62,408 bases of DNA, filler included, from Rhizaria sp. SCN 62-66 (GCA_001724265.1; 4 parts of 4 records of this genome joined end to end with filler, not necessarily neighbours in it), one strand, 5' to 3'. Positions 36,863 through 59,400 are shown, numbered from the whole stretch's first letter. Translations and numbers: made by a program. The notes: generated from the sequence alone by a model not told the origin.

Positions 36863-36962
36863 NNNNNNNNNNNNNNNNNNNNNNNNNNNNNNNNNNNNNN
36901 NNNNNNTTAATTAATTAANNNNNNNNNNNNNNNNNNNNNNNNNNNNNNNNNNNNNNNNNNNN
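36863..36962. other. Artificial contig spacer
   Basis: N44-TTAATTAATTAA-N44. Confidence 0.97.
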
Positions 36963-37680
36963 TGAGTCAAGGATCTTGTCCACTAATTTTATATTTTCAT
37001 GGATATTTGAGAAAAATAATTTCAAAAAGTGATGATCAAAATTAAAAAAGTGATGATCAAAATTAAAAAAGTGATGATCAAAATTAAATTGATATTTCTT
37101 TCACATTAGTGGATATAAGTCTTGATTTTTATATGTTTCAGGGGAATCAGAACATCTAAAAAACAAAACCCAAATTTGGGTTTGGGTTTCTATACCCTTT
37201 GGGTTTGGGTTTGGGGTTTGAATTTGGGTTTCTAAATGAATAGCAAAAGTGAATTTATTTATTGCAAAATATCACATTTGGGTTTCTATACCCTTTGGGT
37301 TTGGGTTTGGGTTTGGGTTTGGGTTTCTAAATGAATAGCAAAAGTGAATTTATTTATTGTAAAATATGACGTTTTGTTTATACTTTTTGGATTTGGGTTT
37401 CTATACCCTTTGGGTTTGTGTTTTTAAAATGCTCTGATGACTCTGAGACATATAAAAATCAAGATTTGTGTCCACTAATGTAAAGAAAATATCATCTATT
37501 TTTTGATCATCACTTTTGAGTTTGGTTTTTAAGATGCTCTGATGGCCCTGAAACATATAAAAGTAGTACATGAGTCAAGGATCTTGTCCACTAATATAGA
37601 ATAATATCAGTTTAATGGTGATCATCACTTTTTTGATCATCACTTTTTTGATCATCACTTTTTTAATCATCACTTTTAGG
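36963..37680. repeat. rDNA spacer: imperfect inverted repeat enclosing TTTGGG tracts, plus AAAAAAGTGATGATC repeats in both orientations
   Basis: ~37090-37160 is the approximate reverse complement of ~37420-37495. TTTGGG runs span 37174-37410. TGAGTCAAGGATCTTGTCCACTAAT recurs at 36963 and 37571. Confidence 0.8.
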
Positions 37681-37814
37681 CTGAAAATCAAAACAGTAAC
37701 GTACGTGAATTTGGATCCAGGGAAATGCGAGATGCTGGGAGACTTTCCTGGAGATTGAATATCAATATGGCCCGGGGACGTACTTGAATCCAGTAGCCTA
37801 GGTTTTATCAAAAA

Positions 37815-39315: not shown

Positions 39316-39894
39316 ACTCCCTACGGGTAGAGAATCCTAAACTTCGTCGTAGGTGATTATAACCATGAAATTCCGGGATATGGACTGCCTAAAAGTTTGA
39401 TCCCCTGATGCCAAAAGGTAATCCGAGCTTGGTCCAATTAGAAGGAAATCCTAAACTTCGTCAGAGTTGATGATGATTGCGAAATTCCGTGGTATGGACT
39501 GCCTAAAAGTTTAATCCCCTGATGCCAAAAGGTAAAATAAAAAAAAAAACTCAAGGGTATATCAAAAATTCATGTTAGTGGATAAGGGTCGCCTAATAAA
39601 TCAAAATATGATACCCATTTGTCCATCAGACAAACTTTTTTTGGAAAAAAAAGTGTATAGTTCCATTTCGACATACCAGGAAGATTCTTCTAGGAAAGTA
39701 TACCACTTAAGTACTAAATTTTATAGTTAGAAGAAAATGTAGGATTTGTAATCCCGGAAATCACCCCTAGGGTCCCGGTGGGGGGGCCGGTGCGGGGTGC
39801 GGCCGTGCCGGGTGGGACCCACACCGCACCGATAACGCTGGCATGCCGTTATCGTCGAGGCCCATACCCCTACGCGCGGGCGCGCGCGGGGGGC

Positions 39895-40940
39895 CTCATC
39901 ATCAAAAAAGTGATGATCAAAAAAGTGATGATCACATGGTGGGTGGCGACCACCGCAGGCCGGGTGCAGGAGGGGCACGCCGCGCAGACCCGGTTGCCCC
40001 CGGGCGAAAAAAGTGATGATCAAATGGTGGCTTGAGCAACCACCGCAGGTAGGTAGGACCTGCAGGCAGGAGGGGGCACGCCGCGCAGACACGGTTGCCC
40101 CCGGGCGAAAAAATGATGATCAAAAAAGTGATGATCAAAAAAGTGATGATCACATGGTGGGTGGTGACCACCGCAGGCTGGGTGCAGGAGGGGCACGCCG
40201 CGCAGACCCGGTTGCCCCCGGGGGAAAAAAGTGATGATCAAATGGTGGCTTGAGCAACCACCACAGAGGCAGACACGGCTGCCCCAGAGAAAAAAGTGAT
40301 GATCAAAAAAGTGATGATGGTTTGGTGGCTTGAGCAACCACCGCAGGCAGGCAGGACGGGCACCCGGAGAGGGGGTAAGACCCGCATGAAAGGTGCGCCG
40401 CGCATACACGGCTGCCCCAGAGAAAAAAGTGATGATCAAAAAAGTGATGATCAAATGGTGGCTTGAGCAACCACCACAGAGGCAGACACGGCTGCCCCAG
40501 AGAAAAAAGTGATGATCAAAAAAATGATGATCAAATGGTGGCTTGAGCAACCACCGCAGGCCAGTCTAATTAGCTTGGACACCTAATTAACTGGACCTGA
40601 AGGGGAAAAAATGAAAAAAGGATGGAAAAAGGATGGAAAAACGATCATGAAATGGTGGCCTGGGCAACCACCGCAGGCGGCACCCAACGGACAGGGGTAA
40701 GACCGATCTGCATATGAAATAGGGGAAAAAATGAAGAAAGGATGGAAAAACGATCATGAAATGGTGGCCTGGGCAACCACCGCAGGCGGCACCCAACGGA
40801 CAGGGGTAAGACCGATCTGCATGAAATAGGGGAAAAAATGAAAGAAGGGTGAAAAAAGGATCATGAAATGGTGGCTTGGGCAACCACCGCAGGCCAGTCT
40901 AATTAGCTTGGACACCTAATTAGGCTGGACCTGAAGGCAG
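39895..40940 (+). repeat. rDNA spacer/ETS repeats (GC-rich hairpin unit plus AAAAAAGTGATGATC)
   Basis: ATGGTGGCTTGAGCAACCACCGCAGG and variants are repeated about 10 times. Confidence 0.85.
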
Positions 40941-40969
40941 GAGGAAAGGAGAGAAGGGTGAAGGAATAG

Positions 40970-41280
40970 AGATCATTTAAACATTTTCCCATGAAACCAA
41001 GTCCGGTAGCCGATTAGCGGCCTGGCAACAAAGTGATTCTGAAAGAAGTGTATGAAAGCACTAATTTCTTGATCATTTAAACATTTTTTTCCATGAAACC
41101 AAGTCCGGTAGCCGATTAGCGGCCTGGCAAACGTTAGAGAGCGAAACTGATGCATAAAAGCACTAGTTTCTTGATCATTTAAACATTTTTCCATGAAACC
41201 AAGTCCGGTAGCCGATTAGCGGCCTGGCAACAAAGTGATTCTGAAAGAAGTGTATGAAAGCACTAATTTCTTGATCATAA
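40970..41280 (+). repeat. Three ~100-nt tandem repeats just upstream of the SSU gene (candidate Pol I promoter/ETS elements)
   Basis: GATCATTTAAACATTTT..CCATGAAACCAAGTCCGGTAGCCGATTAGCGGCCTGGCAA occurs three times. Function is inferred from position only. Confidence 0.75.
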
Positions 41281-42007
41281 ACAAATATTGATGTATAAAC
41301 GAGGAAATTTTACGAGAAAGATAGAGAAACAATTAAACGAATACGAGGTTGTATAAAAGAGAGAAATCTCTTTTTTAAAAGAAAAAAAGTGAATATATAT
41401 ATATATATATGTTCATAAAATACCTGGTTGATCCTGCCAGTAGTCATATGCTTGTCTCAAAGATTAAGCCATGCACGTGTAAGATCGTTCAGCGGGGCAA
41501 CCCGAAACAAAATAATCTGCGGATGGCTCATTATAACAGTTATAAACTTGGCTACCAGCTTTATCCTTAAACGGATAACACCGTCAAATGCGGTGATAAT
41601 ACGTGTCCCGAAAGAACCCGAAAGGTTCAGACGAAATGGATGTCGGAAGGACTTCATTTCTGCAATACGTTTTTGTTTCCTCGGAAACGAAGGGTATGTG
41701 GACTACTATTCTAGTAGCCTGGAAGAGGTATTTCTTACTTATCAGGTACGTTGTTTCAGTAAGGGTGAAACAAGCCAATTACGAGTACGGCGAATCAGTG
41801 TTCGATTCCGGAGAGGGAGCCTGAGAAATGGCTACTACATCTAAGGATGGCAGCAGGCGCGAAAATTACCCAATACAGAGTTTGTGAGGTAGTGACAAGA
41901 TATAACGACCTTCTATCATTTGATGGAAGGGTACCGTGTTAAAAAGCGGTTTGGAATGATTCTAGTTTAAACGTCTATTAGAGTAACAATTGGAGGACAA
42001 GTCTGGT

Positions 42008-43012
42008 TGCATTATTGGTAAGCCAGATGTCAAATACACACAACAAATCAGGTCTTGAATACATTAAAGTTTACTACATGTCGGACGAAGAAGCTTTCTA
42101 TCATCACAATACGATGGAAAATCAGGTGGAGCAGAGAGATATAATTGGTTGTTGCATACGCGAAGATTCACGTTGTTGGTATGTGAAATCGCAGAAGGGT
42201 AGATATACATCACCAGGATCTAAAAACCAAACCTGTTTTGGTTATCAACTGGCTGCGCGGAAGAAATACGGCAACCAAGCGATTCGGGCACACAAACAAT
42301 CGATGAGAGATATGATGATATCTCATTTGTGTGGTGCTCCAGGATCAAGATGTGTAAACCCAGATCACCTCGTTATTGAGGAAAAGAAAGTTAATGATGA
42401 ACGGGTTCACTGCCACTTCTTCATGAACAAAATCATGAAACAATGGAAAAATCCAACAGCAAAGAAGCACTTTGTGACCAATATAAAGATTCTCTTGAAC
42501 GACTTTGTAGATAAATACTGTCCACATGAACCAAAATGTGGATCCGTTAGCAAGTAAATGTGTATCTTGGCAGAAAGTCAGATATGAGCACTGACTGTAC
42601 TACTGTAAATTGCGGGAAAACCCTCGTAAGCTCTAGTATACCGCGGTCACACAAGCAATTGGTGATGCAGCAGATAATATAACGATTATCGGATGGTAAT
42701 AAGTACTAGAGAAGGAGTTGTGGCTCCACACAACTGTAACCCGGGGACAATCCGCAGCCAAGCCTCTTTCCTGATTGATTATGATGATCATAATCATGAT
42801 CATCACCATCATAAGAAAAAAAAGGGAAAGAGGAAGGTTCAGAGACTATAATCAGTTGGGGGAGTCAAAAAGAAAGAGACTTCTTAAGGTATAGTCCACA
42901 CCCACCAGAAATGGTGCAATCATTCTATTAAGAGTTGTGCTCAACTCCTAGGGATTGATTTTGACTCTAGAACTAGCTGAGGAAATGCTGCTAGTTATGA
43001 GTGGTAATTTGG
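42008..43012 (+). mobile_element. Group I (IC1) intron at S516 with homing endonuclease gene
   Basis: Exons GTCTGGT^GCCAGC, terminal G, and core elements AAATTGCGGG, AATCCGCAGC, CAGAGACTA and TAAGGTATAGTCC. Confidence 0.95.
42027..42557 (+). CDS. His-Cys box homing endonuclease (S516), 176 aa
   Basis: SHLCGAPGSRCVNPDHLVIEEKKVNDERVHCH...CPHEPKC, resembling the Naegleria S516 endonuclease family. Confidence 0.92.
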   Translation: MSNTHNKSGLEYIKVYYMSDEEAFYHHNTMENQVEQRDIIGCCIREDSRCWYVKSQKGRYTSPGSKNQTCFGYQLAARKKYGNQAIRAHKQSMRDMMISHLCGAPGSRCVNPDHLVIEEKKVNDERVHCHFFMNKIMKQWKNPTAKKHFVTNIKILLNDFVDKYCPHEPKCGSVSK

Positions 43013-43025
43013 GCCAGCACCCGCG

Positions 43026-43477
43026 AAAACCATGCTGGAATCCGCGGAGCAGCAGGAAAAAACCTGAAGTGCTTAATAAACTGCTAAACATCATCAAATT
43101 GCTGGAAGTCCCTAAAGCTGTTTGGTACCGTCCTAACGCCGAAAGGAGAAGTTAGTGACACCATAATGAAAGTTGTGGGTGTGGTGATAATCTAAACAGA
43201 TGTTTCCTTATTGCACATTGAAACGCAATGGGTAATCAGCAGCCAAGTCCTAAAGCAGGCTTCCCTCTTGTTTACTATAAACAAGGGCCTGATATGGATG
43301 CAGTTCACAGACTAAATGGTGGTGGGTCGTTGATGAAATGAGTAGCTAAAATGATAATGCGAAAACGGAAGCGGCTTAAGATATAGTCGGTCCTGCTAGG
43401 AAACTAGTGGGGGTTCGTAACCAATATTTTGTACAAAAAAATTAGTCAAAAGAATGATTATAATATTGGTTATAACG
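43026..43477 (+). ncRNA. Group I (IC1) intron at S529
   Basis: Exons CCCGCG^GTAATTCC. P1 CCGCG/CGCGG, P10 GCTGGAAT/ATTCCAGC, and core CACAGACTAAAT and TAAGATATAGTC. Confidence 0.93.
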
Positions 43478-44119
43478 GTAATTCCAGCTCCAAAAGCATA
43501 TACTAAAATTGCTGTAGTTAAAACGCTCGTAGTTGATAAAAGGTATTATTAATCGGAGCCTGTTTAGTTTCATCTATGTATATTGGCTATTCCAAGTCTT
43601 TATATGTTTAAAAATGGTATTCGTTTCCCAAAGAGACGAGTATTAGGGGGCTAAGCCATTTGGCGTATTAAAACCTTTTTTAAGGTGTCAGTCTTCTTCC
43701 ACCTTTTAAAAGGGCGTAGGCTTGATTAATGATTGCCGTTGAAAACCGTGAACAAATTAGTGTGTTTCAAACAAGCAGCGTGAAATCGATATCATTTTGG
43801 TAACGATTTTGAGTTTGAATAATTTAGCATGGTACTTTACGACTTTCTTTTGCAAAAAAGGAAGAATAAAATAGAAGGGATAGAGGACTCTGGTATTGCG
43901 CGTCTAGAGGTGAAATTCCGATATTTTCGCAAGACGAACGGAGGCGTAAGCGGTCGAGTCCATCGTGTCTTCATTGATCAGGAACGAGAGTCAGGGGATC
44001 GAAGATGATTAGATACCGTCGTAGTCCTGACTGTAAACGATGCCAACTCAAGTTCAGGTATGAAACATATAAATTGATCTTCTTGGAATTGACGGGAAAC
44101 CATTAAGTTATTGGGTTCT

Positions 44120-44167
<48 letters not shown>

Positions 44168-44194
44168 ACACCACCAGGAGTGGAGTTTGCGGCT

Positions 44195-44653
44195 TTTGTT
44201 GTATTGACTTAGGCCGAAATTGTTACAATAAAAGTTGTAGCAAGTCCATAGTGACTAAAATGCTAGCGTCACTATTGGGCAACACCGTCCAATTGCTCGA
44301 AGGTCCTGTTAGGCAATAACTACCGTCCTAGTGCCGAAAGGTCTAGCTAGTGACACCATAGGGAAACTTGTGGGTATGGTAAGAATGTTATTGATAGGGA
44401 TAATGAGCAGCCAAGTCCTTAGTTAGCAAGTTGCGCCCCAAAAGCAACTTTGGTAATATGGATGCAGTTCACAGACTAAATGGCGGTGCAACACACTAGT
44501 TTGTGTTGTAAGATATAGTCGGGCCCACTTGAAAAAGTGCTTCTATTAAAGTCTAAACTAGCAAGGTGTGATAGAAGAGGCTAAATATCTGAAGAGTTGT
44601 GGCAAGTGACAACTCTGAAAGATATATGTGTGTATATTAGCTGGGATAAACCG
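44195..44653 (+). ncRNA. Group I (IC1) intron at S956
   Basis: Exons GCGGCT^TAATTCGAC, IGS GGCCG, conserved core, terminal G. Confidence 0.93.
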
Positions 44654-44964
44654 TAATTCGACTCAACGCGGGAAAACTCACCAGGACAGGACAGTGTCGA
44701 GATTGACAGGTGAAAGAGTCCTTTCTTGATTCACTGGTTGGTGGTGCATGGTCGTTCTTAGTTCGTGGAGTGATCTGTCTACTTAATTGTGCCAACGAAC
44801 GAGACCTTGACCCTTAATTAGGTACCAACAATGATAGCAATATTATTGGGCTTTTCCTCGGAAAAGATTGGGTTACCGGGCTTCGAAAGAAGCTTTTACG
44901 CTTTAAGGGGACAAGACGAGGTCATATTTGACTTAGCGTAAGGAAGAGCAAGGCAATAACAGGT

Positions 44965-45515
44965 TAAAAGTGGAATATGTCAAGGAAAAGGGGACAATAT
45001 TCCTGGTATTCTTAGGTTGAATTAGATCAACCAAAAAAATAAATCATGAAAAAAATATTTATTTTTTTGTAATACCAAACAGGCCTGAGTAATTTGAAGA
45101 TGAATTACTAGTCGCTTCAACGTCTCTTTTGACGTATGTTGTGGCAACACCATCAAATTGCGGGAACCTCCTTAGAGCTTTCAATACCAAACATATCTTG
45201 AAAAAGAATATGTGGCCAAGGTAGCGCCTTGGGTACGGTAAAAAGTTGAAAGATTGGACAATCCGCAGCCAAGTCCTAAATCAGGCTTCTCTTTTTTAAG
45301 AATTCCTGACAAGGATGCAGTTCACAGACTAAATGTTGGTGGGTCGTTAATGAACAAAGTAGCTAAACAATAATGCGAACCGGGAAACGGCCTAAGATAT
45401 AGTCGAAGCCACCAAGAAATTGTGTGCTTAAGAGAGGAAGGTTTTATGGGTAATGCTTGACCGGAGAGCTCTTAAGGATAAAAGAAAGAGATATTTTTCT
45501 TTTATTGGGAACTTG
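44965..45515 (+). ncRNA. Group I (IC1) intron at S1199
   Basis: Exons AACAGGT^CTGTAATGCCC. The IGS ACAGGCCTG is at ~45080, after a ~115-nt P1 loop. Conserved core. Confidence 0.93.
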
Positions 45516-45721
45516 CTGTAATGCCCTTTAGATGCCCTGGGCGGCACGCGTACTACAATGTTATTTACAAGGAGCAAAAACAGTTTTTTCTGATCCAGCG
45601 CCTTAAAGGTGTAGGTAATCTGTAATAAGTAACAAGACTGGGATAGATGTTTGTAAATACATCTTGAACGAGGAATTCCTAGTAAGCGTAAGTCATCATC
45701 TTGCATTGATTACGTCCCTGT

Positions 45722-45754
<33 letters not shown>

Positions 45755-45865
45755 GGAATGTTGAAATGAACCTAATGGATAGGTGATATTAGTTGAATTT
45801 TGTCATTTGTAGGAAGGAGAAGTCGTAACAAGGTCTTCGTAGGTGAACCTGCGTAGGGATCATTC

Positions 45866-46913
45866 ATATAATAATAATGATGATCATTGAAGAAGCAATT
45901 CTTCTCCGAGGTCGTTTCCCTCTTGTATCATTTATATAATGATCATTGAAGAAACAATTACAGGTCGTTACCTTTTTAAGGTGTTTCCCTGATCAAAAAG
46001 AAACAAAACTTTGAGCGGTCTTTACCTTTTATCTTTAAGATAAGGTGTTTCCCCACAAAGAAACGAAATTTTCGAGGGTTTTCCCTCTCCTGTATCATTT
46101 ATATAATGATCAGAAAGAAACAATTCTTCGATATCTTTCTCTCATGTATCATTTAATAATAAGAATGTTGTGGGATTCGTCTCACAGTTTTTGTTTTTCC
46201 CCCCAACCTCCCTCTCCTCTCTTTTTTTATGGTCACAAAAAAGAGAGAAGAGGGAGGGAAAGACGAAACATTCATATAAAATGATCATGATGATCAAAAT
46301 GATCATAAAGAAAAGTATCATTTAATAAGAATGTTGTGGGATTCGTCTCACAGTTTTTGTTTTTCCCCCCAACCTCCCTCTCCTCTCTTTTTTGTAACCA
46401 TAAAAAGAGAGAAGAGGGAGGGAAAGACGAAACATTCATATATAATGATCAAAATGACCAAAATGATCATAAAGAAAAGTATCATTTAATAAGAATGTTG
46501 TGGGATTCGTCTCACAGTTTTTGTTTTTCCCCCCAACCTCCCTCTTCTCTCTTTTTTTATGGTCAGAAAAAAGAGAGGAGAGGGAGGGAAAGACAAAGCA
46601 TTCATATATAATGATCAAAATGACCAAAATGATCATAAAGAAAGAAAAGTATCATTTAATAATAAGAATGTTGTGGGATTCGTTTTCACGTTTTTCCCCT
46701 GTCAATCTCTCTCTTTCCTCTCTTTTTTGACCAGAAAAAGAGATTCGTCTCCTCTCTTTTGGACAAAAAAGAGAGAAAAGGGAGGGAAAGATGGAAACAT
46801 TCATTTATATAATGATCATTGAAGAAAAGTTTCGCAAGGTCTTTCCTTTTTTTTAATCTAACAAGAGAGAGATTCGTCTTCTCTTAAGAGAAAAAAAGGG
46901 AAAGACCGATTCA
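45866..46913 (+). repeat. ITS1 (~1.05 kb) with ~165-170 nt tandem repeats
   Basis: Units start at 46146, 46315, 46479 and 46649. Each has a pyrimidine/purine hairpin CCTCCCTCT..TTTTT / AAAAAGAGA..GAGGGAGG. Confidence 0.85.
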
Positions 46914-47066
46914 AAAAGCTATATGGTTGATGACTAGGTTCGTGTAACGAGGAAGAACGTAGTGAATTACGAAATTTCTTATGAATTGCAAACCCTCCGG
47001 GGGATTACTACGGTATTCTAATGCTCTCTCGCACTCAATAATATGAGTAACCTTGTTTGATTGTCA
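46914..47066 (+). rRNA. 5.8S rRNA (divergent; ends approximate)
   Basis: CGAGGAAGAACGTAGTGAA...ATGAATTGCA motifs, located between SSU and LSU. Confidence 0.8.
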
Positions 47067-47204
47067 TTTTTTAAAGAATATAATGATGAATCCTTCTCTT
47101 TGTAACAAAAGAGGGGGGGGGGAAAATAATTATATTTTGGTAAACACCAATTTATTTGTTGTTATTGGAGAATGACATCATTCCAGGTAGGCAACCCGCT
47201 GAAC

Positions 47205-47237
<33 letters not shown>

Positions 47238-48187
47238 AACAAGGATTCCCTTAGTAGCGGCGAGTGAAAAGGGAAAAGTCCATCCTGAGGGGTGTTAAAA
47301 CCCGATGCGGGGTAAAAAGGTAAATCTAGAAACCGTATTATTATTAATGTATCCGGAAATGGAATATGTCTACTCTTTTGAGGACCAAAGAAAGTGAAAG
47401 TCTTTGATTAATAATGATATAGGGGATAAGATTTTAACCAACGAGTACAGTTGTTTGATAATACAGCTGGAATATGGGAGGTAAATTCCTTTTAAGACTA
47501 AATACACTACACGAAACCGATAGTTCACAAGTACCGCGAGGGAACGGTGAAAAGCACTCTGATAAGAGGGTGAAAAGCGTCTGAAACTATATAGCGTTTA
47601 ATCGTAATGATTACGCTTCGAAACACATTTTAACGGATGTGCAATACTAATAAATAGTATGTATGCATGCCGATGTGATACTACTTGTTCGAAAGAACAG
47701 TTTTTGAGGGTAATAAATCGACTATCAAGACTATGACGAATAAAGAAAACAAAGTTACGAGAGGGGTTTTCCGTTAAAAGTAACCAATCTTACTAAGGTT
47801 GTCTTTTTTTATTAAGAGTATGGATGTCAATTATCCCTTTCAAGGTAGTTATCAAATTGATGAAGCGTTTGTTACGTCCCGTCTTGAAACACGGACCAAG
47901 GAATTTGTCGTTTATGCAAGTCATTCGGTTTTTAAAACCGAAGGACATAATGAAAGTGATTTTTTCTTCGAGTATGTACAATACCCACCTTACTAGTAGA
48001 TATCCGACACAGGTAACAAGATATCATAGTCAAGAGTGTGAGTATAAACGGCAAGACCCGAAAGGTTGTGATCTATACTTGACATGGTAGAAGTCAAAGG
48101 AAACTTTGATGGAAGACCTCCGAACGGTGCTGACGTGCAGATCGCTTGTCAGAGTTGAGTATAGGGGCGAAAGACTCATCGAACAAT

Positions 48188-49294
48188 CAAAAAAGAAACG
48201 GAAACCAAATGCCCAAACACAAACGTGATAAAAGCGAAACTGATATCGAAGCAAAAAAGGCAAAAAATGAGAAAATTCAAAACTTTTCCTTAAGTTTTAA
48301 GGAACAGTTCCCAAAATCCAACGTGATCAACGCATATACGATTAGACAGTTGGAGGGATTCTACAAGAATTTGAAAAAAGAAGCAACAAAAGAGAGTCCA
48401 CGATTATATGGCATTGATGTCAATAACTTGAAAAAATTGATGTCTATTGTCAATACTCGAGACGGCACGTACTGGTACAAGTACGTGTACTGCCTAGTTT
48501 CTCACTTGAAACCCCAAAAAACAAGCCATCCTCGGTATCAAACAAGAGCGCCACCCAAGGAAAAGGAGTACATGATAAAAAAGTACTGTTCCGTAAAGGA
48601 ACTGGATTGCCAAGTTAAACTTGCTGTCCACCATATCTCGTATGTAATAGCATACGAGAAAGAGCTTGATTTTTTGGGTTCAGGATCAGGAAACAGCAAA
48701 GTTGTTGAGCATTTGTGCGATGTAAAAGGTTGTTTCCGTAAAGGACATATTAACCCTGTTTTGGTCACACCCAAACAGAACGTCGACAGAGCCAATAGCA
48801 GATGCAAAGGTTGGATATTGGTTGTTGCTAATGGAGTAATTATTACAGAAAAATGTCTATGTAATCATCATCCAGCCTGTGTTGCGGTATCCGTAGTCGC
48901 AATAAACTAAGTGTTTGCGAGTATTTCATTGTATCTTAAAAGGTTGTTAATAGGGCACTAAAAGGGTGACCCTAGTCTTGTTATCTTTACAAGGCGACAC
49001 TGTCAAATTGCGGGAACACCCTAAAGCTTTCACTACCAAGCATACCTCGAAAGAGAGTATGTGGCCGGGGTAATGACCTAGGGTATGGTAAAAACGTGAA
49101 AGATGCTTAGAGTCAAAAGAAAAAGCAATAACAATGGGCAATCCGCAGCCAAGTCCTAAAAAACCAAAAAAATGTATTAAATTTTATTGGTAATATGGAT
49201 GCAGTTCAGAGACTAAATGGCAGTGGGTCTTTATATGAAAATGTAAAGGCTTAAGATATAGTCCCCACCATACGGAAACGTATGGAGTTTTGGG
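48188..49294 (+). mobile_element. Group I (IC1) intron at L798 with homing endonuclease gene
   Basis: Exons GAACAAT^CTAGTAGCTGG. The IGS GTTGTT at 48943 lies after the ORF. Full IC1 core at 48990-49265. Confidence 0.93.
48209..48910 (+). CDS. His-Cys box homing endonuclease (L798), 233 aa
   Basis: VHHISY...EHLCDVKGCFRKGH...KQNVDR..RC...CLCNHHPAC and a basic N-terminus. First ATG inside the intron. Confidence 0.87.
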   Translation: MPKHKRDKSETDIEAKKAKNEKIQNFSLSFKEQFPKSNVINAYTIRQLEGFYKNLKKEATKESPRLYGIDVNNLKKLMSIVNTRDGTYWYKYVYCLVSHLKPQKTSHPRYQTRAPPKEKEYMIKKYCSVKELDCQVKLAVHHISYVIAYEKELDFLGSGSGNSKVVEHLCDVKGCFRKGHINPVLVTPKQNVDRANSRCKGWILVVANGVIITEKCLCNHHPACVAVSVVAIN

Positions 49295-50752
49295 CTAGTA
49301 GCTGGTTTCCTCCGAAATATCTCTCAGGATAGCAAAAACTCACTAGTTATGTCTGGTAAAGCAAATGATTAGCGGTCTTGGAGTTTAACGATTTCATCCG
49401 ATTCTCAAACTCTAAATGGGCAACAAAGAGAGTCGACAAGACTCTTGTTAGAACTTTAATTACTTAAACCTGGTTTTTTTGAATTAAGTTCTGTAATAAA
49501 ATGAGTTTTTAGTGGGCAGGGCTTGGTAAGCAGGTCAGGCGATGTGGGATGAACTGTTAGTTGGTAAGAAAAGTTTCGAAAAAAAGTTTAATCGATACCA
49601 TAAAAGGCGTAAGTTCATCCAGACAGTTGGACGGTGGTCATGGAAGTTGAAAACCGCCAAGGAGTGTGTAACAACTCACCAACCGAATGAACTTGCCCTG
49701 AAAATGGAAGAAGCTTATACTTTTGAGCTTCTCTTATACCGTTATATTGTTATACATACAAAAAAAAATATAACGAGTAGGAGGACGTCTATATCAGCGG
49801 TAAAGTTTAATCGAGATGATTAAATGAAGCGGTATAGAGTGCAGATCTTGGTGGTAGTAGCAATTATTCAAACGAGATGGTTATTTCTAAGAATTGTTAT
49901 GCAATTTTTAGATATGTTTAGCTTTGAAGACCGTGGTGGAGAAGGTTTCCCCGTCAATGGCACTCATACGGGGGTTAGTCGGTCCTAATTAGTTGGTTAA
50001 CTCTCTGGAATGAAATCCCCTATATGGGGTCATACTTTGAAAGGGAAGTAGGTTGATATTCCTACACTAATTAATCCCTCATCGTAAAAAAAGCTTATTG
50101 ATAGGCAAGGTGGTAGCTTGTAACTAGTTGGAGTTTTCTATTCTAACTAACTTGAAATCGGGAGCGCTCAGTAATCGGGTCATTAGGCGATTGAGACTGC
50201 TTTTCGGAAGATCACTAGTATTTGCTAGTGAGAGTTACCTAGTTACTACAAGGAAAAAGCTTATTAATTATGTTTTAAAAAAGGGGAAGCAATTAACCGT
50301 ACCAGATACCGCAACAGGTCTCCAAAGTGATCAGTTTCTGGTTTTGTAGAGTTTAATGTAGGTAAGGGAAGTCGGCAAAACGGATTTGTATCTTAGGGAT
50401 AAAGGTTGGCTCTTTAGATAAAGTATTGTGGTAAAGCTCTAATAATTACTATATGGTGGTCTTAAGTTTCTTTGGATTATAAGTAATCGCAAGATGAAAG
50501 TAATTTAAAGGGTTTATAACTTCTCGGTAATTATAAGGTTTTACAGCGTTGTAAAAGACCGTTTGCGATACTATTTGTTATCAAATAAGAACTGATGGAA
50601 TCCGGAGGAATCTGACTGTTTAATTAAAACCAAGCAAAGAGTTGACTTGAAAAAGGCACGCCCTCTTTGTGATTTCTGCCCAGTGCCTGAATGTTAAGGT
50701 GAAGAGATTCGAACAAGCACGGGTCAACGGCGGGAGTAACTATGACTCTCTT

Positions 50753-51744
50753 GAACATTTATAATAGTTTTTAATGCCAAGCAAAAAATCAAAACCAAGG
50801 GCTTGTACGGTTGATAATTGTAAAAAGGCATACAGAAGATTCGTTAAGGAAATAATGGATAATGATCTGCTTGAGATTGCTGGCAATGAATATTGCTTCT
50901 TCTATGATTTATGCGGTTTTAGGAACCAATATAGAATTGGTTACAAGAAGAACGGGAGTAAATACTTTCGAGTAAAAACCCACAGAATGTGGTTTTACTC
51001 GTCTGCTGAATTGATCGCAATGGCGGAAGATCACAAGAATTACACGGTGAGCCACTTGTGTCACGGAAGCGGATGTATTAATCCAAATCATCTTGTTCTG
51101 GAATCGTTAGCTGTAAACAAATCGAGGAACGTTTGTCCAGCTGGATCAAAATGTTGGCACGAGCCAAAATGCATTAGAGAAGGACATCAATTAAGCAATC
51201 AGAAGATAGCTTATTGGGATGGATGCAAAATGTCGAAACAGAGTAAATAACCATTTTCCAAAACGTTTTAAAGCTATTTTGAGAGAGATAGGTGGGTGCC
51301 GGCACTTGTTATAAAACCGCCAATAACAAGGAACGGAATAAACACTATGCCACCTAGTCAACGTTTAGTTGGCAACACACCTGGTTGCGGAGAGTCCTAC
51401 CTGGCAACATTTTAATATAGTTGCAAAGATAGGGAAGTATTATCTACCACCTCATCAAGGAAGTAGGGGCGAATGAGCTTATCGAGTACTTGTTTGAGGG
51501 ACCACGGTTAATGCCCGTTCCCAATGGTAATCAACGGTAATGCTAATGGATAACCCGCAGGCGAGTCTGCCTTTACAGACCGTCTCATCGACTGGTAAGG
51601 TGTGCGTTTACAAGTAAAAAAGAGAAAGAGATAGTTTATACTTGTAGGCGTAAGGTACAGTCAGCACCACGGGTAACCGGCACTGGATCTTGAAAAAAAC
51701 CAGTGGCTTTTTTTTTGACTTTTCAAAAAAGGCGGATTAATGCG
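50753..51744 (+). mobile_element. Group I intron at L1926 (IE-like core) with homing endonuclease gene
   Basis: Exons CTCTCTT^AAGGTAGCC. IGS GAGAGAG at 51281. Core CTGGTTGCGG, AACCCGCAGG, CGACTGGTAAGGTGTG and TAAGGTACAGTC. Confidence 0.92.
50774..51250 (+). CDS. His-Cys box homing endonuclease, I-PpoI-like, 158 aa
   Basis: THR...SHLCHGSGCINPNHLVLESLAVNKSRNVCPAGSKCWHEPKC parallels I-PpoI [30 protein letters not shown]. Confidence 0.93.
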   Translation: MPSKKSKPRACTVDNCKKAYRRFVKEIMDNDLLEIAGNEYCFFYDLCGFRNQYRIGYKKNGSKYFRVKTHRMWFYSSAELIAMAEDHKNYTVSHLCHGSGCINPNHLVLESLAVNKSRNVCPAGSKCWHEPKCIREGHQLSNQKIAYWDGCKMSKQSK

Positions 51745-51767
51745 AAGGTAGCCAAATGCCTCGTCAT

Positions 51768-52179
51768 TCTCAAATGAGTGATTAAAAGCTGTCCAGTAAT
51801 GGACAGCTAGTGAGTGTGTCACGTCCTTATCAGACTGACATGCTTGCAACACCTTCAAATTGCGGGAAAATCCTAAAGCTTAGAATACCGCGGCTCGTCG
51901 AAAGATTGAGTGTCAGCAGGTGGTCGAAAGACCACTGGATGGTAAGAACGTCTGAGATGGAACAATGGACAATCCGCAGCCAAGTCCTAACCCTTGAACG
52001 AGGTATGGATGCAGTTCACAGACTAAATGGAGGTGGGTCATTTTCATCATTAGATTATGGCTTAAGATATAGTCGGTCCCACTCCGAAAGGAGTGCTACA
52101 AGGAGGAATCTGACTGAGGGCAACCAAAGTCAGAGGAGAGCCTTGTAGGTGGTGCTTTTCTAGTACTACGGGTTAAACG
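51768..52179 (+). ncRNA. Group I (IC1) intron at L1949
   Basis: Exons CTCGTCAT^TTAATTTGTGACG, conserved core, terminal G. Confidence 0.93.
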
Positions 52180-52296
52180 TTAATTTGTGACGCGCATGAA
52201 TGGATCAACGAGATTCCTACTGTCCCTACTTACGTTCTAGCGAACCCACAGCCAAGGGAACGGGCTTGGGCATTGACAGCGGGGAAAGAAGACCCT

Positions 52297-52735
52297 AAAA
52301 AAACTCTTTGGGGTAGCTATAAGACAAAGTTATAGCTAAACATCATCAAATTGCGGGAAGTCCCTAAAGCCTTTATTTGGTACCGCTCTAGTACTGAAAA
52401 GTCTAACTAGTTGCACCACTGGGAAACTAGTGGGTATGGTAAGAATCCAAAAGGATATATATAATGTTCAACACAATATATAATGGGTAATCCGCAGCCA
52501 AATCCTAAACTAAGGCGCTCTTAAAAAGAGAGAGAGTCCCCTGGCATTTGGATGCAGTTCAGAGACTATATGGTGGTGGGTTACTAATGAAAACAAGTAG
52601 CTAAACAATGATGCAAACGTTGGAAGTAGCTTAAGATATAGTCCGGCCTTTATTGAAAAATAAGCCTTATGAGTTTACATGAGGCATTCCATTTCATTTT
52701 CTTTACGAAACGCGAGATGGAATGGGATAAAACCG
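52297..52735 (+). ncRNA. Group I (IC1) intron at L2066
   Basis: Exons GAAGACCCT^GTTGAG, IGS GGGGT, conserved core. Confidence 0.93.
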
Positions 52736-53174
52736 GTTGAGTTTGACTCTAGTCTAATTTGGTAAAATGACGCGAGGGATGTAGTATAGGTGGTAGAGCA
52801 ATCAACAATGAAATACCACTGCTTTTGGTTGTCATTTGACTCACTCTATGAAAAGCAAATCCCTTTCGGGGGATCGTTTAACAAGTGGTTGAATTCTTAG
52901 GAATTTAATTATGCACTGAATTGATAGGGTACAGAATTAGGTGGGGAGTTTGGCTGGGGCGGCACATCTGTTAAACGATAACGCAGGTGTACAAAGGTTA
53001 GCACAAGTTGGTCAGAAACCAACTGTAGCGGATAAGGCCATTAGCTAGCCTGACTAGTATTTTCAGTACAAGTACTAGCTGCGAAAGCGCGTCCTTACGA
53101 TCCTTTAGTGAAATTATATTTTATAGTCTTTCAGAATTTGAAGCTAGAGGTGTCAGAAAAATTACCACAGGGAT

Positions 53175-53303
53175 CTCCATATTTTATCCTTTGAAACAAA
53201 TGGAAATTGTAATAGAATTTAAGTGACTGTTTAAGAAGAAAAATATATATATAAAATGATACAGTCCCATGTAAAAAAAGAGAAGTAAACAAACAATACT
53301 TGG
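53175..53303 (+). ncRNA. 129-nt degenerate group I-like mini-intron at L2449
   Basis: Splits ACAGGGAT^AACTGGC, follows a U and ends in G. Only a P7-like GACTGT/ACAGTC pairing is recognisable. Confidence 0.8.
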
Positions 53304-53327
53304 AACTGGCTTGTGGCAGCCAAGCGT

Positions 53328-53768
53328 TCATAAAATATTATCATGATCATATATGATTATGTTAATATTTTGCTATGAGCGCAAGCATTAGTGAAAAGCT
53401 ATGTGCTAGTCACCGGGTCTGGTGGCAACATTGTCAAATTGCCGGAACATCTTGTTAGGTCCTTGGTACCGCCTTTGCACTGAAAAGTGTGATAAAAATG
53501 GCACCACGGTGAAAGTCGTGGGTATGGTAATAATCCAATGAATAAAGATAATCGGCAGCCAAGTCCTAAACCTCCTTTTGTGTGAGGCATGGATGCAGTT
53601 CACAGACTAAATGGCAATGGGTCATTTTCATCATTAGATTATGGCTTAAGATATAGTCGGGCCCTCTGGAGACAGAGCTGTTGGATAAAGAATGGATGAC
53701 AGACCCAATTTCTATCTATTCCCGAGCCAACAGAGGAGAGTTTATTATAAACTCTCTGGGACAAACCG
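53328..53768 (+). ncRNA. Group I (IC1) intron at L2473
   Basis: Exons CAAGCGT^TCATAGCGAC. The IGS GCTATGAGCGC pairs with both exons. Conserved core. Confidence 0.92.
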
Positions 53769-53781
53769 TCATAGCGACGTT

Positions 53782-53815
<34 letters not shown>

Positions 53816-53879
53816 CTAGCGAAGCAGAATTCACTAAGGGTTAGATTGTTCACCTACTAACAGGGAACGTGAGCTGGGT

Positions 53880-54407
53880 TTGTAAATAATGAATGAAGAA
53901 AGTTTCCCGTTCATTATTAAGAAAAGCCCAATAGTTAAGAGGTACAAAGTGGTGAATTTCACGGTTCGCATATATCAATACACGGACGTACAAGGAAACT
54001 CTTGGCCCAATTGAGTGCAACAAAGATCGTCAAATTGTTCGGGGAAGCCCTTAAGCTCTTATCGCCGCCTGTGGCTCGAAAGAGAAGAAACATGCCCATC
54101 TATTCAGAGTATAAGTCTGTATTGTGCATGTACCACAGAGCCCCAAGTTCCTTGGGAGGAAAAAGTATAAGAGATTGGGCAATCCGCAGCCAAGCTCCTA
54201 ACGGTTTTTTTTAACTTATGGAGAAGGTACAACGACTGTAAGGCGTACCACGCAAGTGGAATATACAGTCTAGCCCCACGGGAAACTGTGCTCACATGTT
54301 ATTAACCAAATACTTTGCACAAATTATATATATACTTGTTATTTGGCTAGGATATGCGAGGGATTACGAGGCCTGGAGGAAATGCCAGGAAGAGTCCGGT
54401 GTAAGCG
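53880..54407 (+). ncRNA. Group I intron at L2584
   Basis: Exons GCTGGGT^TTAGACCG, IGS GCCCA, AATCCGCAGC, P7 GACTGTA/TACAGTC, and a short P8 CCAC-GCAA-GTGG. Confidence 0.9.
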
Positions 54408-54444
<37 letters not shown>

Positions 54445-55189
54445 TCAATATGGGTAAGAGATTTAGTAATTATTTGACCTTTAGTGTTAAATAACTACTA
54501 AAGCTCAGTACGAGAGGAACTGTTTTGGTCATCCGCTTTTCAGCAGGGATTAAGAGTATAACCTTGTTTGGAACGATGGGAAGAATAATCAAGTATGACT
54601 GAATGCCTCTAAGTTTGAATTCAGTGTTTTATAAGATGGAATTCGTTTTGGCCCTGGGAAGAATAATTAATGATAGCGCATTAATAATAAGTTAACTTGG
54701 AATTGAGTACATGTGGTAGCCGTTGGGGAGATAGCAAGTAAGATGTTTGCAAGTAATTCAAATTGGTATTAATATAGCCGTGAATCACTGGAATACCACC
54801 AGTTGGGACCTATAAGCAATTAAATGCATTTTTGTAGGGTCATTAAACAATCACTTGTAAGTCTTAGAGATTTGCAGGAATCGATTTGTTGAGAGGAGGT
54901 CGTAATGAAAGATTTTTCATTTACGAGCCTCTTAAATTTAATCATATAATAATATGATTCACGGTTACAGTATATATGTAAACTTCGTAGGGCATATAAC
55001 TGTTGAACAATGTGTTTTAGCACTTTCATAAGGACACATTTGTTCTAGTGTGTTTGAGCACTTTCATAAGGACACACTTATTCTGTAGGTATGATTTCTG
55101 TAGGTATGATAATAGAAGACAAGACATTTGTTGTGGAGTGTGCGTCTTTTTAGATGTTTTTTCTCTCTTGGAGAAAAGGGATGATGATT

Positions 55190-56030
55190 ACAAAGTTTGG
55201 AGGTCGTTTCGAAGGAAACAAATTCCAAGGTCTTTTCCGTTTGCTCATTTTTAAGTTGCGCGAGCTGGCATCCACCGAATCTAATTAACCTCTTTTCAGC
55301 AAGAAAAGATAGATACGGTCCAAACCCAGTCTATCCCAATTTCGTCAAGAAAAGGGATACTTTTCCACAAAAAATGAACATGAACATTAAGAAGGAAATT
55401 TCCAAGGTATTTCTCTCTTGTATCATTTAATGTTGCTCCTTCCCATTTCTCTCCTTTTTGGCAAAAAAAGAGGTGAACAATGCATCAAAAGAATAGGAAA
55501 TTCCAAGAGCTTTCCCTTTTGCTCATTTATAATAGATGCGGTCTGGGGTCCATCGAATCTAATTAACCTCTTTTCGTCAAGAAAAGAGATAGATTTTTGC
55601 CCAGTCTACAAAACCCTCTTTCGTCAAGAAAAGGGTCAGCATAAAATGAACACAAAGAAGGAAAGCACAAAGAATGGGGTTTCTAGCATATTTCTCCGTT
55701 ATATGAAATCCAGTAAGTAGATGGTTTTCTCTCTTCTTATGTACAAGAAGAGAAAAGGGGCAAATTTTCCTTCATATGTGTCGATATTACAAACTTTTGG
55801 GGGCGTTTCCAAGGAAACAAATTCTAAGGTCTTTCCCTTTATATGGTCATTTAACATTGTGGTCTGGGGTTTATCGAATCTAATTACCCTCTTTTCAGCG
55901 AGAAAAGAGATAGATTTTTGCCCAGTCTTTCCCTCTTTCGTCAAGAAAAGGGTTATTGAGTTTCCATAAAATGAACATTAAGAAGGAAATTTCCAAGGTT
56001 TTTCTCCATTGTATTATCTAATATGAATGT
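55190..56030 (+). repeat. 3' spacer, three degenerate ~300-nt repeats
   Basis: CGAATCTAATTAMCCTCTTTTC...CCCAGTCT...TTCGTCAAGAAAAGGG recurs at ~55275, ~55553 and ~55874. Confidence 0.8.
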
Positions 56031-56308
56031 TGTTCCTTGCCATCTTTCTCTTTTTTACAAAAGAGATGGACATGTAGCAAGAGAAATTCTACAAAGTCGT
56101 AACTCTAGGGGGTTGTCAATGTCTATTAGCCGTTGATCGTAAAAGTGGTCTGTTACAAGGGGGGAAATCGATTAACAATAAGAGTTGTGGATATTGTTCT
56201 ATGATGGATACCGCAAATAGCGTTTACTCGTTGCAGTATCATCATTTAATGGTTGAAGGAATGTGGAGGATTGTTAAAAGATCAACTTTTTGTTTCGTGG
56301 CTTTTGTG

Positions 56309-56408
56309 NNNNNNNNNNNNNNNNNNNNNNNNNNNNNNNNNNNNNNNNNNNNTTAATTAATTAANNNNNNNNNNNNNNNNNNNNNNNNNNNNNNNNNNNN
56401 NNNNNNNN
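56309..56408. other. Artificial contig spacer
   Basis: N44-TTAATTAATTAA-N44. Confidence 0.97.
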
Positions 56409-59400
56409 GAGCGCGAGGCCGCCGCGGCCGCGGAGGCACGCGCCGAGGCAGAGCGCGCGCGCGAGGCGCTTGCGGCCCGCGGCGTGCGCGCGGAGGAAGA
56501 CGCGGCTGCGCGCGAGCAGGCCGCTGTCGCCCGCGCGGCGGCCGCGGCGGCCCGCGAGGCGGCGCTGCGCGAGAGTCTGGCGCAGACGCGCGAGGAGCTG
56601 GCCCAAGCGCAGGCACGCGCGCGCGCCGCGGGGTCGGAGCTGGAGAGCGCGGCCGAGCGCGCAGAGCACCTGGCCGGCATGGACGCGCAGCGGCGCCGGC
56701 TCAAGCTGGCGCTCGACGCGGTGAAGCGCGAGCTGCTGCGGCGCGCCGAGGCCGCGGGCGTGCGCGTTGAGCGCTACACCGACGAGACCGACAGCAACGA
56801 GTTCGTTCACAACAACGACGACGATGATACTGGTGGTGACGCGCACAACAGAAGCGCGATATCGCCGATGACCCCGCGCAAGGGCGCCCACGGCGGGTTC
56901 AGCGCGGCGACGACGCCGCAGCGCACGCGCTCAACCGCGGCGCGCACGCCCGGCGGGACGTTGCCCGCACTGCTGTCCCCCGGCGCGCCCGCGGTGCGGC
57001 CCGCGTCGCCCGTGCGCGCGAGCGAGGTCGACGCCGTGCTGGGCGGCCGCGGCTTCGGGCTCTGGGGCTGCGATGCGCTCGACGCGGCCTATGCGGCCAT
57101 GGCGCGCGCGCTGCGTCAGGCCGAGCACGAGCTGCAGATGGAGCGACTACGCGCGGGCGACGCGCAGTCGGCGCACGAGGGCGAGGCAGCGCGGCTCAAG
57201 CGGCTCGCTGACGAGCTCACCGCGGCGATGCGGCGTGCGGAGGATCAGGCGCGCGGCGCCGACGAGCAGCTGCGCACGCTCGCGGCGACGCAGGCCGAGG
57301 CCGCCGCGCTGCGGACCAAGGTCGCCGAGCTGACGCGCCTGGCCGAGACGGCCGCGGCGGACGCGGCGGCCGCGGCGCGCGGCAAGGCGGATGAGGGCGC
57401 GCGCGTACGCGACGCCGAGGCCGCACGCGCCGCCGCCGAGGCCGAGGCCGCCAAGTGGCGTGAGGACGCCGGGCGCGCGCGCGGCGACCTGGAGGCCGAG
57501 CTCGCGCGACTGTCAGCCGCCGTGGACGAGCTGACGGTGCGGAACCGGTCGCTGACGCGGCAGCTGAGCGGGCGGGAGGACCAGTTGTCGGAGCTGGAGG
57601 AAGTGATTCGAAACCTCGAGGCGCTGCTCGGCAAGGAGCGCCGCCAGCAGGCCGCGCACGGCGAAGACTTCACAGCCATCATGCGGCGCAAGGAGTCTGT
57701 GCTTGCGCACCACACCGAGGAGATGGAGCGGCTCCGCGGCGAAATGCAGGCCGCGATGCAGCAGCAGCTGGACCACGTGCAGCGGCTCTCGGATACGGTG
57801 CAGCGTAACGAAGAGGCGCTGGAGCGCGCGCAGAGCGAGATCACGGCGCTCGAGACGCAGCTGGCCGCCGCCGTGGCCGCCGAGGCGCGCGCGGGGGCCG
57901 AGGCCGCGCGCTGGCGCCAGTGGGGCGAGGACCACGCCGCCGCGGTCGAGGACGTCGACACGCTGCGCCGCGATTGCAACGAGGCCCTGGAACGCGCGAG
58001 CCGCGCTGAGGCTGCCGCGGCCGACGCCGCCGAGTGCCGCGCCGCCGTCGCGCGCACGCAGTCGGCACTGCTAGACTCGCGCGCGCAGCTGGGCGCGGCC
58101 GTGCGCGAGCTCGAGGACCAGCGCCTCGCGGCCGCCAAGGACCGCCGCGCGCTGGCCAGCGAGGCGGAGCAGCTGGCCGAGGGCAAGGCCGCGGCCGAGC
58201 GCGCCGTCGCCGGTGCACGCGACGCCGCGCGGGCCGCCGAGGTGCGGGCCGACGAGGCGCGCGCCGCGGCGCACCGCATCGCGCTGGAGCGCGACGAGTG
58301 GGAGCGCGCGACCGCCGACGCGCGGGCCGACGCCGTGCGCGCGCGCGAGACCGCGGCCGAGGCGCAGGCGCGCGGGCGCGAGCTGGCCGCCGCCGTCGAG
58401 GCGCGCGAGGCCGCGGCGCGCGCGGTGGCCGCGGAGGGCGAGCGCGCCGCTGCTGGTGCTGCGCAGCGCGCAGCGCTGATGGACGCCGCGGCCGCGCAGC
58501 ACGAGCAGGCGCTGTCGCGCGCGCGCGAGGACGCTGCCGCTGAGCAGACGCGGTTGGGCGTAGCCGCCACCGATGCCGCCGCGCGTGCCGGTGCCGCTGA
58601 GGAGCGCGCAGACGCGCTAGAGCGCGCGCTGGCCGCCGCAAACGAGCGCGTGCGCGTCGCAGAGAACGCGCGCGAGGCCGCCGAGCGCGAGCAGCGCGAC
58701 TTCGTTGCCGTGCGCGAGCGCGCCGAGGCGCTGCTGTCGGCCAAGGCCGGCGCCGACGCCGCTGCTGGCGACGCCACGCGCAGCAAGGAGCACGCCGAGG
58801 CGCGCGCACGGGCCGCCGAGCGCCGCGCACGCACGGCCGAGCTCGAGGCGCGCGCGCTGCGCGACAGTCTGGCCGCCTACCACGACGGCGAGCGCAGCAA
58901 GCTCGCGGTGCTCGGTGGCGGCAACGCGGGCGCCGACGGCAACGGCAGTAGCAGCGGCGGTGCGCGTGTGCGCGACGTCACCGCGAGCGGGCCCTTCGCG
59001 CGCTCGCTGCCGTGGCTCGCCAACAGCAACGCCGGTTCTGCCAACAGCCGTGGTATGGACGCGGGCGCGATCGACTCGGACGATGAGGACGCCGGCACCG
59101 CTGCCATTGCCCTGGCCGGTGTCCCCGGAGTGCTGCCGCCGGCCGCGCCCGCCGAGGTCGCCGCTAGCGAGGCCTATCCTGCCTTCTCGGACGCGCCTTC
59201 TGACCCAGCCCTCGCGGTCGCCGCCGCCACGCGCGCCGCCGCCCACGCCGCCGCGGCCGCGCACACGGCGGGCCCCGCGGGCGAGGACGCCGGCGCCGGC
59301 GCGCGCGCGGGCGCGGACATCAACGCCGCGGCCGCGGGCGCCGCCGAGCGCGCGCGTGCCGTAGACAGCGCAAACGCCGTGCTCGACGGGTGGCTGAGTC

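Follow-up and report, generated by a model that had tools for sequence, protein, structure and literature searches.

A ribosomal DNA unit with ten probable group I introns, three intact His-Cys box nuclease genes and a core-less L2449 mini-insertion in an uncultured protist, probably a heterolobosean

Multi-intron ribosomal DNA (rDNA) with His-Cys box nuclease genes is well known in myxomycetes. Group I intron loads of 20 are given for Diderma niveum (PMC3679873), 12 for Fuligo septica and seven for Mucilago crustacea (PMC8395846); these and the other reports cited below are used as far as their accessible portions go. For Heterolobosea, including acrasids, the richest small subunit (SSU) rRNA gene in the open literature searched holds five introns, none of them at S529 in the accessible text (bioRxiv 2024.10.05.616810), and the SSU of the acrasid Pocheina rosea NJ13 has introns at S516, S895, S956, S1199 and S1211 together with two His-Cys nuclease genes (bioRxiv 2024.10.05.616810). 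Here we analyse an rDNA unit in a stretch of 62,408 nt from Rhizaria sp. SCN 62-66 (GCA_001724265.1), filler included, hereafter called the window, in which four insertions interrupt the SSU gene and seven the large subunit (LSU) gene. Very likely it is genuine rDNA, nuclear or nucleolar, from an uncultured protist (most probably a member of Tetramitia), with ten group I introns, of which three contain homing nuclease genes, and a short insertion at L2449.

Related rDNAs were sought by scanning metagenomes for 20 bases of the divergent 5.8S. Of the six loci obtained, three have rDNA (L002, L005 and L006) and three are without rRNA (L003, L004 and L007). A second scan, of a genome collection with the L2449 motif, gave 36 loci, among which L043 alone is rDNA, the remainder being chance matches in bacteria and archaea. 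L002 and L005, which agree at 99.99% across an aligned block of 9.7 kb, represent a single organism, L043 is 100% identical to L002 over 6881 nt, and L006 is a second organism. L002 (SSU 1919 nt, LSU 3596 nt) has no group I match; window exons are ~85% (SSU) and ~80% (LSU) identical to it, and the relatives are related lineages, not strains. As a side observation, L043 (1-6881) is a eukaryotic rDNA contig inside a record titled as a Caedibacter metagenome-assembled genome, where it was probably mis-binned.

The rRNA genes and their insertions are located in the window as follows (S and L denote SSU and LSU sites in Escherichia coli numbering).

41421-45865, plus strand: SSU rRNA gene (RF01960, 916.5 bits), 1978 nt after removal of its four introns
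42008-43012 (1005 nt), plus strand: S516 group I intron (RF00028 66 bits at 42503-42918), position 516, site empty in both L002 and L006; a nuclease gene occupies the 5' end
43013-43025 (13 nt, E. coli 517-529), plus strand: mini-exon between S516 and S529; the spliced product equals the intron-less L002 sequence
43026-43477 (452 nt), plus strand: S529 group I intron (RF00028 101.8 bits), position 529 with G at -1, L006 orthologue at 80% identity
44195-44653 (459 nt), plus strand: S956 group I intron (RF00028 94.7 bits), position 956, empty site in L002 and L006
44965-45515 (551 nt), plus strand: S1199 group I intron (RF00028 95.6 bits), empty site in L002, L006 orthologue at 84% identity
46915-47066, plus strand: 5.8S rRNA (RF00002, 65.4 bits)
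47173-54875, plus strand: LSU rRNA gene with seven insertions (RF02543), 3' end of the last exon as placed by Rfam
48188-49294 (1107 nt), plus strand: L798 group I intron (RF00028 128.1 bits at 48935-49285), position 798, site empty in both L002 and L006; its nuclease gene precedes the P1 guide strand
50753-51744 (992 nt), plus strand: L1926 intron, probably group I, position 1926, 7-bp P1 guide at 51281, no RF00028 match, eight compensatory pairs against L006
51768-52179 (412 nt), plus strand: L1949 group I intron (RF00028 122.3 bits), position 1949, separated from the preceding L1926 intron by 23 nt, site empty in both L002 and L006
52297-52735 (439 nt), plus strand: L2066 group I intron (RF00028 98.4 bits), position 2066, empty site in the relatives
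53175-53303 (129 nt, 25% GC), plus strand: L2449 mini-insertion, position 2449, no RF00028 match, 76-nt (L002) and 81-nt (L006) versions
53328-53768 (441 nt), plus strand: L2473 group I intron (RF00028 122.9 bits), position 2473, empty site in the relatives
53880-54407 (528 nt), plus strand: L2584 group I intron (RF00028 52.4 bits), position 2584, empty site in the relatives

The four SSU and seven LSU insertions sum to 6515 nt, in agreement with the ~6.5 kb of the initial annotation, and all 11 occupy conserved positions of the rRNA core in the E. coli alignment. Two mini-exons, of 13 nt (S516/S529) and 23 nt (L1926/L1949), are left between close neighbours. Junctions were first read by eye on the sequence and then verified, blastn and nhmmer of the unspliced rDNA against E. 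coli having provided few anchors only; sites were numbered by local alignment to E. coli rrsH and rrlH, with S1199 named by convention as the alignment did not span that junction. At ten of the 11 junctions the predicted ligated exons equal uninterrupted sequence in L002/L005/L043 or in L006, judged by BLAST breakpoints and site sequences, and the precise exon junctions noted at the outset hold to that extent; L2449 is the sole junction with no empty allele in any relative examined. Splice-site rules are followed with one exception: U stands at -1 in ten insertions (S529 has G) and every insertion ends in G. The window and all relatives share a variant of the 530 loop, with C at position 524. 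The unit had been delimited as 41421-54960, a span whose SSU start stands and whose LSU end does not, given that Rfam closes the last LSU exon at 54875.

Nine of the 11 insertions match the Rfam group I model RF00028 above its gathering score (52-128 bits, E from 2e-10 to 4e-33), and a permissive Rfam scan of 36000-56500 found no group I core beyond these nine. The remaining two differ from each other, L2449 having no core and L1926 going unrecognised by RF00028, so the eleven group I-type introns first announced become, after this Infernal/Rfam check, nine plus one plus one. Seven cores (S529, S956, S1199, L798, L1949, L2066 and L2473) share stretches of 80-88% identity and are IC1-like, L798 being a common fungal IC1 site; S516, L2584 and L1926 are distinct. 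The closest pairs between the window and L006 are introns at the same site (S1199 84% and S529 80% identity), as expected for site-specific families. For S529, whose insertion follows a G, a splice-site G:C pair is possible with the sequence CGCGG at 43043; the Diderma S529 intron presents the same anomaly of insertion after G in the accessible part of PMC3679873. No lariat-capping ribozyme (GIR1) was reported in 36000-56500 at E≤1, and the twin-ribozyme feature was thus not found there. As for novelty, no open-literature paper combining L2473, L2584 or L2585 with the term group I intron was retrieved, in a search that took in neither the site lists of CRW and GISSD nor many papers behind subscription; L2473 is possibly a new intron site.

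L1926 is, in all likelihood, a group I intron of a subclass poorly covered by the Rfam model. A 7-bp guide, GAGAGAG at 51281, pairs with the exon and places a U:G at the splice site, and the non-coding part (~490 nt) is largely identical to that of the L1926 intron in L006. A joint fold of the two holds 126 pairs, eight of which are kept through changes on both sides, a weak signal as it comes from two sequences only. The Mucilago L1926 intron is described as class IE in the accessible part of PMC8395846.

Three open reading frames (ORFs) lie within the introns.

42027-42557, plus strand: ORF1, 176-aa His-Cys box homing endonuclease gene in the S516 intron (PF05551 53.6 bits, 3.4e-14; catalytic and zinc residues aligned)
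48209-48910, plus strand: ORF2, 233-aa divergent His-Cys box homing endonuclease gene in the L798 intron (PF05551 26.0 bits; residues aligned; 53 relatives)
50774-51250, plus strand: ORF3, 158-aa I-PpoI-like His-Cys box homing endonuclease gene in the L1926 intron (PF05551 60.2 bits, 3.1e-16; I-PpoI 4.1e-11)

All three are uninterrupted and on the sense strand, starting 19, 21 and 21 nt into their respective introns. Since each matches PF05551 (cut-off 27 bits, with ORF2 just under it) and aligns at the catalytic and zinc residues, the earlier count of three intact His-Cys box genes is upheld. ORF3 aligns residue by residue to I-PpoI (4e-11) and keeps the catalytic His, the Asn and all zinc ligands. 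In the multiple alignment the Asn and the second zinc site are aligned in all three ORFs, ORF1 and ORF2 keep the same Cys/His set, and the equivalents of I-PpoI C41, H98, C100, C105 and H110 are invariant in ten of ten aligned sequences; the zinc sites of I-PpoI we take to be C41/C100/C105/H110 and C125/C132/H134/C138. Relatives are unevenly distributed. ORF1 has a single one, at 34% identity, and no named acrasid relative in a word-indexed search; ORF3 has 16, at 44-61% identity and all from metagenome records; an exhaustive search with ORF2 returned 53 at E≤1e-3, and among 20 of these tested 17 match PF05551 at E≤1e-3, with 12 reaching the cut-off or exceeding it. A 98%-identical variant of ORF2 is likewise intact. 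In L798 and L1926 the gene occupies the P1 loop, with the 5' splice site before it and the P1 guide strand after it. S516 offers two guide candidates, at 42022 and 42577, and the placement of ORF1 within that intron is therefore ambiguous.

The proposed course of events begins with a pre-rRNA that would hold ten group I introns, seven related and IC1-like and three distinct (S516, L2584 and L1926). Their removal would proceed by guanosine-initiated two-step transesterification, restoring the universally conserved sequences of the rRNA core. By analogy with I-PpoI, the nucleases of S516, L798 and L1926 would each cut an intron-less rDNA allele at their own site, and the cut allele would be repaired by copying the intron (homing); intact predicted target sequences for these nucleases exist in the relatives. 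L2449 would leave as a mini-intron through a factor acting in trans.

Across the relatives and the window, full introns number zero, three and ten. The three introns of L006 all carry nuclease genes, at S529 (172 aa), at S1199 (191 aa) and at L1926 (278 aa, its start ATG lying in the exon before the intron). The S529 and S1199 introns of the window have no nuclease gene, and a tblastn search with the L006 nuclease proteins for remnants in them found nothing significant (best E 0.19). At L1926 the intron of L006 (1767-3068, minus strand) is 84.8% identical to that of the window over 421 BLAST-aligned nt, and the two nucleases (278 and 158 aa) show 24% identity in their alignment. Such a largely identical ribozyme with differing nucleases points to nuclease gene exchange independent of the ribozyme, and suggests that the L1926 gene was replaced in this way. 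More broadly, the differing intron and nuclease sets of the relatives show gain and loss between lineages.

A separate observation concerns the exon base before the L798 site (-1; window 48187, L002 8067-8090), which is U in the window and in L006 and C in intron-free L002; the C would remove the U:G pair needed at L798.

The initial annotation went further and took three uninterrupted nuclease genes as a sign of recent or ongoing homing, which our data do not sustain: the relatives that differ in content are only ~85% identical in the SSU, and this exon haplotype was never seen with an empty site. At least eight runs contain at least 75% of the sampled words of the stretch from the SSU to the internal transcribed spacer (ITS) (41421-47100, 5.7 kb, 43% intron), which looks more like fixation.

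The L2449 element stands apart from the ten introns. It measures 129 nt in the window, 76 nt in L002, whose rDNA is free of introns in all other places, and 81 nt in L006, and is thus present in all three lineages (window, L002/L005/L043 and L006). An RF00028 core was sought in every version and none was found, the element being too short to hold one. Across the three lineages the CTC start, the motifs AGTGACTG and GATACAGTCCC and the final GG are conserved, and the remainder cannot be aligned. Two parts of the conserved motif can pair with exon sequence: GUCCC with GGGAU on the 5' side, which places U:G at the junction, and CAGU with ACUG on the 3' side; an internal GACUG is another possible partner of CAGU. 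We read this putative pairing as that of a group I P1/P10 guide which lacks its ribozyme. In the E. coli alignment the insertion falls between U2449 and A2450 in the peptidyl-transferase loop. To our knowledge this loop is buried, and we know of neither a retained 76-129-nt loop nor a free end at that place; a retained loop or a break is therefore unlikely, and we infer removal with ligation by a trans-acting factor. The element would then be a vertically inherited, group-I-derived mini-intron, predicted to be removed in trans.

A further possibility, which we hold only tentatively, is that L2449 stands for a new and extreme class of nuclear rDNA intron, 76-129 nt long, obligatory and vertically inherited, that may have lost the whole ribozyme and kept nothing but a P1/P10-type guide, U at -1 and the terminal G. 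With the whole ribozyme lost, splicing would have to occur in trans, by a free-standing group I ribozyme or a dedicated host factor; L002 has no other rDNA intron able to supply a core. It is rather unlikely that L2449 is not spliced at all, whether cut out without ligation, which would give a split LSU rRNA, or kept in the mature rRNA. The lack of a catalytic core would suit either outcome, as would the lack of a bulge-helix-bulge (tRNA-endonuclease) motif at the borders, where hand inspection for a 4-bp central helix found none, but the site is buried in the peptidyl-transferase loop, and U at -1, the terminal G and the exon-pairing invariant motif (GUCCC/GGGAU, CAGU/ACUG) are kept in three of three lineages.

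Several points weigh against a genuine heterolobosean unit with ten group I introns and three nuclease genes. P1 candidates are not unique for several introns, and L1926 has no RF00028 match even when scanned alone at E≤10. ORF2 falls 1 bit below the PF05551 cut-off, and phmmer of ORF1 and ORF2 against I-PpoI gave no match. The contig comes from a metagenome assembly with an N gap, and co-residence of the 11 insertions in one physical copy therefore rests on the assembly. Lastly, the site set (S529, L1949, L2066 and L2449) is typical of myxomycetes rather than Heterolobosea in the searched literature, as far as its accessible text goes.

Within 41421-47100, at least half of the sampled words occur in 20 runs, one of which may be the source sample; the runs belong to 15 studies of metagenomes from bioreactors, sludge, wastewater and soil. 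Six of the runs are RNA, with word shares of 0.51-0.69, a measure that cannot tell spliced from unspliced RNA. The host is most likely an uncultured free-living protist common in activated sludge and bioreactors, and probably a heterolobosean, to judge from an extra SSU hairpin, the layout of S516 and the short rDNA contigs of the relatives. Set against the Rfam eukaryote consensus alone, the SSU is 21 nt longer between helices 17 and 18 and has a second hairpin there, which is where the Tetramitia-specific helix 17_1 lies (PMC12328842, accessible part). The rDNA contigs of the relatives stand alone, measure 8.5-12 kb and have repeats at each end; the ends of L002 share repeats of the intergenic spacer, which fits a circle or a tandem array alike. 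Heterolobosea are described as carrying rDNA on circular plasmids (PMC4167309, accessible part). The label heterolobosean-like given to the unit at first is thus made plausible by the 17_1-like hairpin and the acrasid-like S516 layout, and is not proven by them.

An amoebozoan, myxomycete-like host is quite improbable by comparison. It would account for S529 with its odd G at -1, S956, S1199, L1926, L1949, L2066 and the always-present L2449, hallmarks of myxomycete rDNA in the accessible parts of PMC3679873 and PMC8395846, but the extra hairpin lies at the position of the Tetramitia-specific helix 17_1, the layout of the S516 nuclease gene is acrasid-like, S516, S956 and S1199 are also common acrasid sites (bioRxiv 2024.10.05.616810, accessible text), and the short stand-alone contigs of the relatives (8.5-12 kb, end repeats) fit heterolobosean rDNA plasmids (PMC4167309, likewise).

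Least probable is a composite in which rDNA variants of several strains were merged, no single copy having all eleven insertions. In its favour, the window comes from an assembly of metagenome type, made of joined contigs and interrupted in the rDNA by an N gap, and the 80-88% identical core stretches of seven introns could mislead an assembler. Against it, other runs contain a share of 0.90-0.95 of the words sampled from the 5.7-kb SSU-ITS stretch; since introns make up 43% of that stretch, the four SSU introns occur together in those runs. The genes of ORF1 and ORF3 lie 9 kb apart, and for the exact ORF1 protein (on two recorded contigs) as for the exact ORF3 protein (on seven) the longest contig listed has 16427 nt. 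All junctions are clean and in register with the relatives.

The surroundings of the rDNA unit in the window are to be kept apart from it. The window consists of several contigs joined and is not a single molecule. Separators of 44 N, TTAATTAATTAA and 44 N stand at 21160-21259, 36863-36962 and 56309-56408, and they set off the contig in question.

36963-56308 (19,346 nt): stand-alone rDNA contig, ~40% GC, separators on both sides, internal 51-N gap at 39164-39214 (from N runs and the GC profile)

The flanking contigs (window 1-36862 and 56409-62408) have 60-78% GC and uninterrupted ORFs of 1149-2632 aa. Among six such giant ORFs tested, five lack a Pfam family and one is a full-length ABC transporter, whose look-alikes in feature space are eukaryotic ABCC-type transporters. 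Given the separators, there is no physical linkage of these high-GC neighbours to the rDNA; they may belong to an organism other than the rDNA host, and the GC gap calls for caution in co-assignment.

Further features of the rDNA contig are its repeats. Clusters of TTTGGG repeats with unique sequence between them occur upstream of the SSU at 37175-37423; they have a telomere-like look, yet are internal to the contig. The spacer at 37777-39317 holds 11 copies of a ~100-nt tandem repeat that run across the 51-N gap, so their copy number is not fixed by the assembly. An end overlap indicating circularity was looked for in the contig and none was found. ITS1 contains, at 46180-46820, about four copies of a ~165-nt unit, each a long near-perfect inverted repeat with polypyrimidine and polypurine arms. 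Candidate small nucleolar RNAs and microRNAs were rejected as sub-threshold chance matches, those in ITS1, on both strands, arising from the long inverted repeats.

The unit would add three predicted rDNA-specific nucleases, two of which (S516 and L798) have few or no close relatives, and together with the relatives it forms a natural series of zero, three and ten introns, with one L1926 ribozyme and two nuclease genes, that is useful for studies of intron and nuclease turnover. Side results of interest are the core-less, obligatory L2449, the possibly new site L2473 and the apparent nuclease gene swap at L1926.

Among described nucleases, ORF3 is nearest to I-PpoI of the Physarum intron Pp.L1925: it aligns at 4e-11 with all catalytic and zinc residues, and the same rRNA stretch is the target. 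In contrast to Pp.L1925, the window intron is inserted one base further on (L1926) and its ribozyme goes unrecognised by RF00028; unlike the I-PpoI system, the same L1926 ribozyme carries in L006 another nuclease gene (278 aa, exon ATG). The S516 twin-ribozyme introns of Naegleria and Allovahlkampfia share with the window the site, a heterolobosean host (the probable one here) and a His-Cys nuclease gene. In the accessible accounts their gene is embedded in GIR2, whereas the S516 nuclease gene of the window lies at the 5' end of the intron and no GIR1 match appears at E≤1. With acrasids, the sites S516, S956 and S1199 are shared, and so is an S516 intron of ~1 kb with a forward nuclease gene, which starts 14 bp in (19 nt in the window), but the accessible text reports no S529 for acrasids (bioRxiv 2024.10.05.616810), which the window has, and describes no introns of the acrasid LSU.

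For L2449 a described precedent exists in the L2449 introns of Physarales. Both are present in every member of the lineage, which here includes rDNA otherwise free of introns. The Physarales introns, as described in the accessible part of PMC3679873, have large peripheral insertions, do not self-splice and are far larger, and the Mucilago L2449 intron is of group IC1 (PMC8395846, likewise); the element described here is 76-129 nt and core-less. Degenerate group I introns of lichen fungi (PMC8527467) resemble it in having lost catalytic sequences and yet being cleanly removed, which implies host machinery. The example sized in the accessible text of that report is ~300 nt and keeps part of the core, whereas L2449 here retains only a P1/P10-like guide. 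If the mini-insertion is spliced, the removal of core-less group I remnants by host factors becomes directly testable.

The comparison with myxomycete loads, first drawn in the initial annotation, proved apt, since S529, S956, S1199, L1926, L1949, L2066 and L2449 are all named as myxomycete sites in the accessible parts of PMC3679873 and PMC8395846. Both systems have many group I introns per pre-rRNA, and S516, S529, S956, S1199, L1926, L1949, L2066 and L2449 are held in common; in both the S529 insertion follows a G and L2449 is always present in the lineage (PMC3679873, PMC8395846, as above). They differ at L1949, where the window intron has a full core (122 bits) and that of Physarales is described, in the text accessible, as truncated and P8-less. 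The window SSU also has an extra hairpin, putatively of heterolobosean type, and L798, L2473 and L2584 are additional to the myxomycete sites of these accounts. With ten probable group I introns and three intact nuclease genes in one unit, myxomycete-like loads would extend to a second, unrelated amoeboid lineage.

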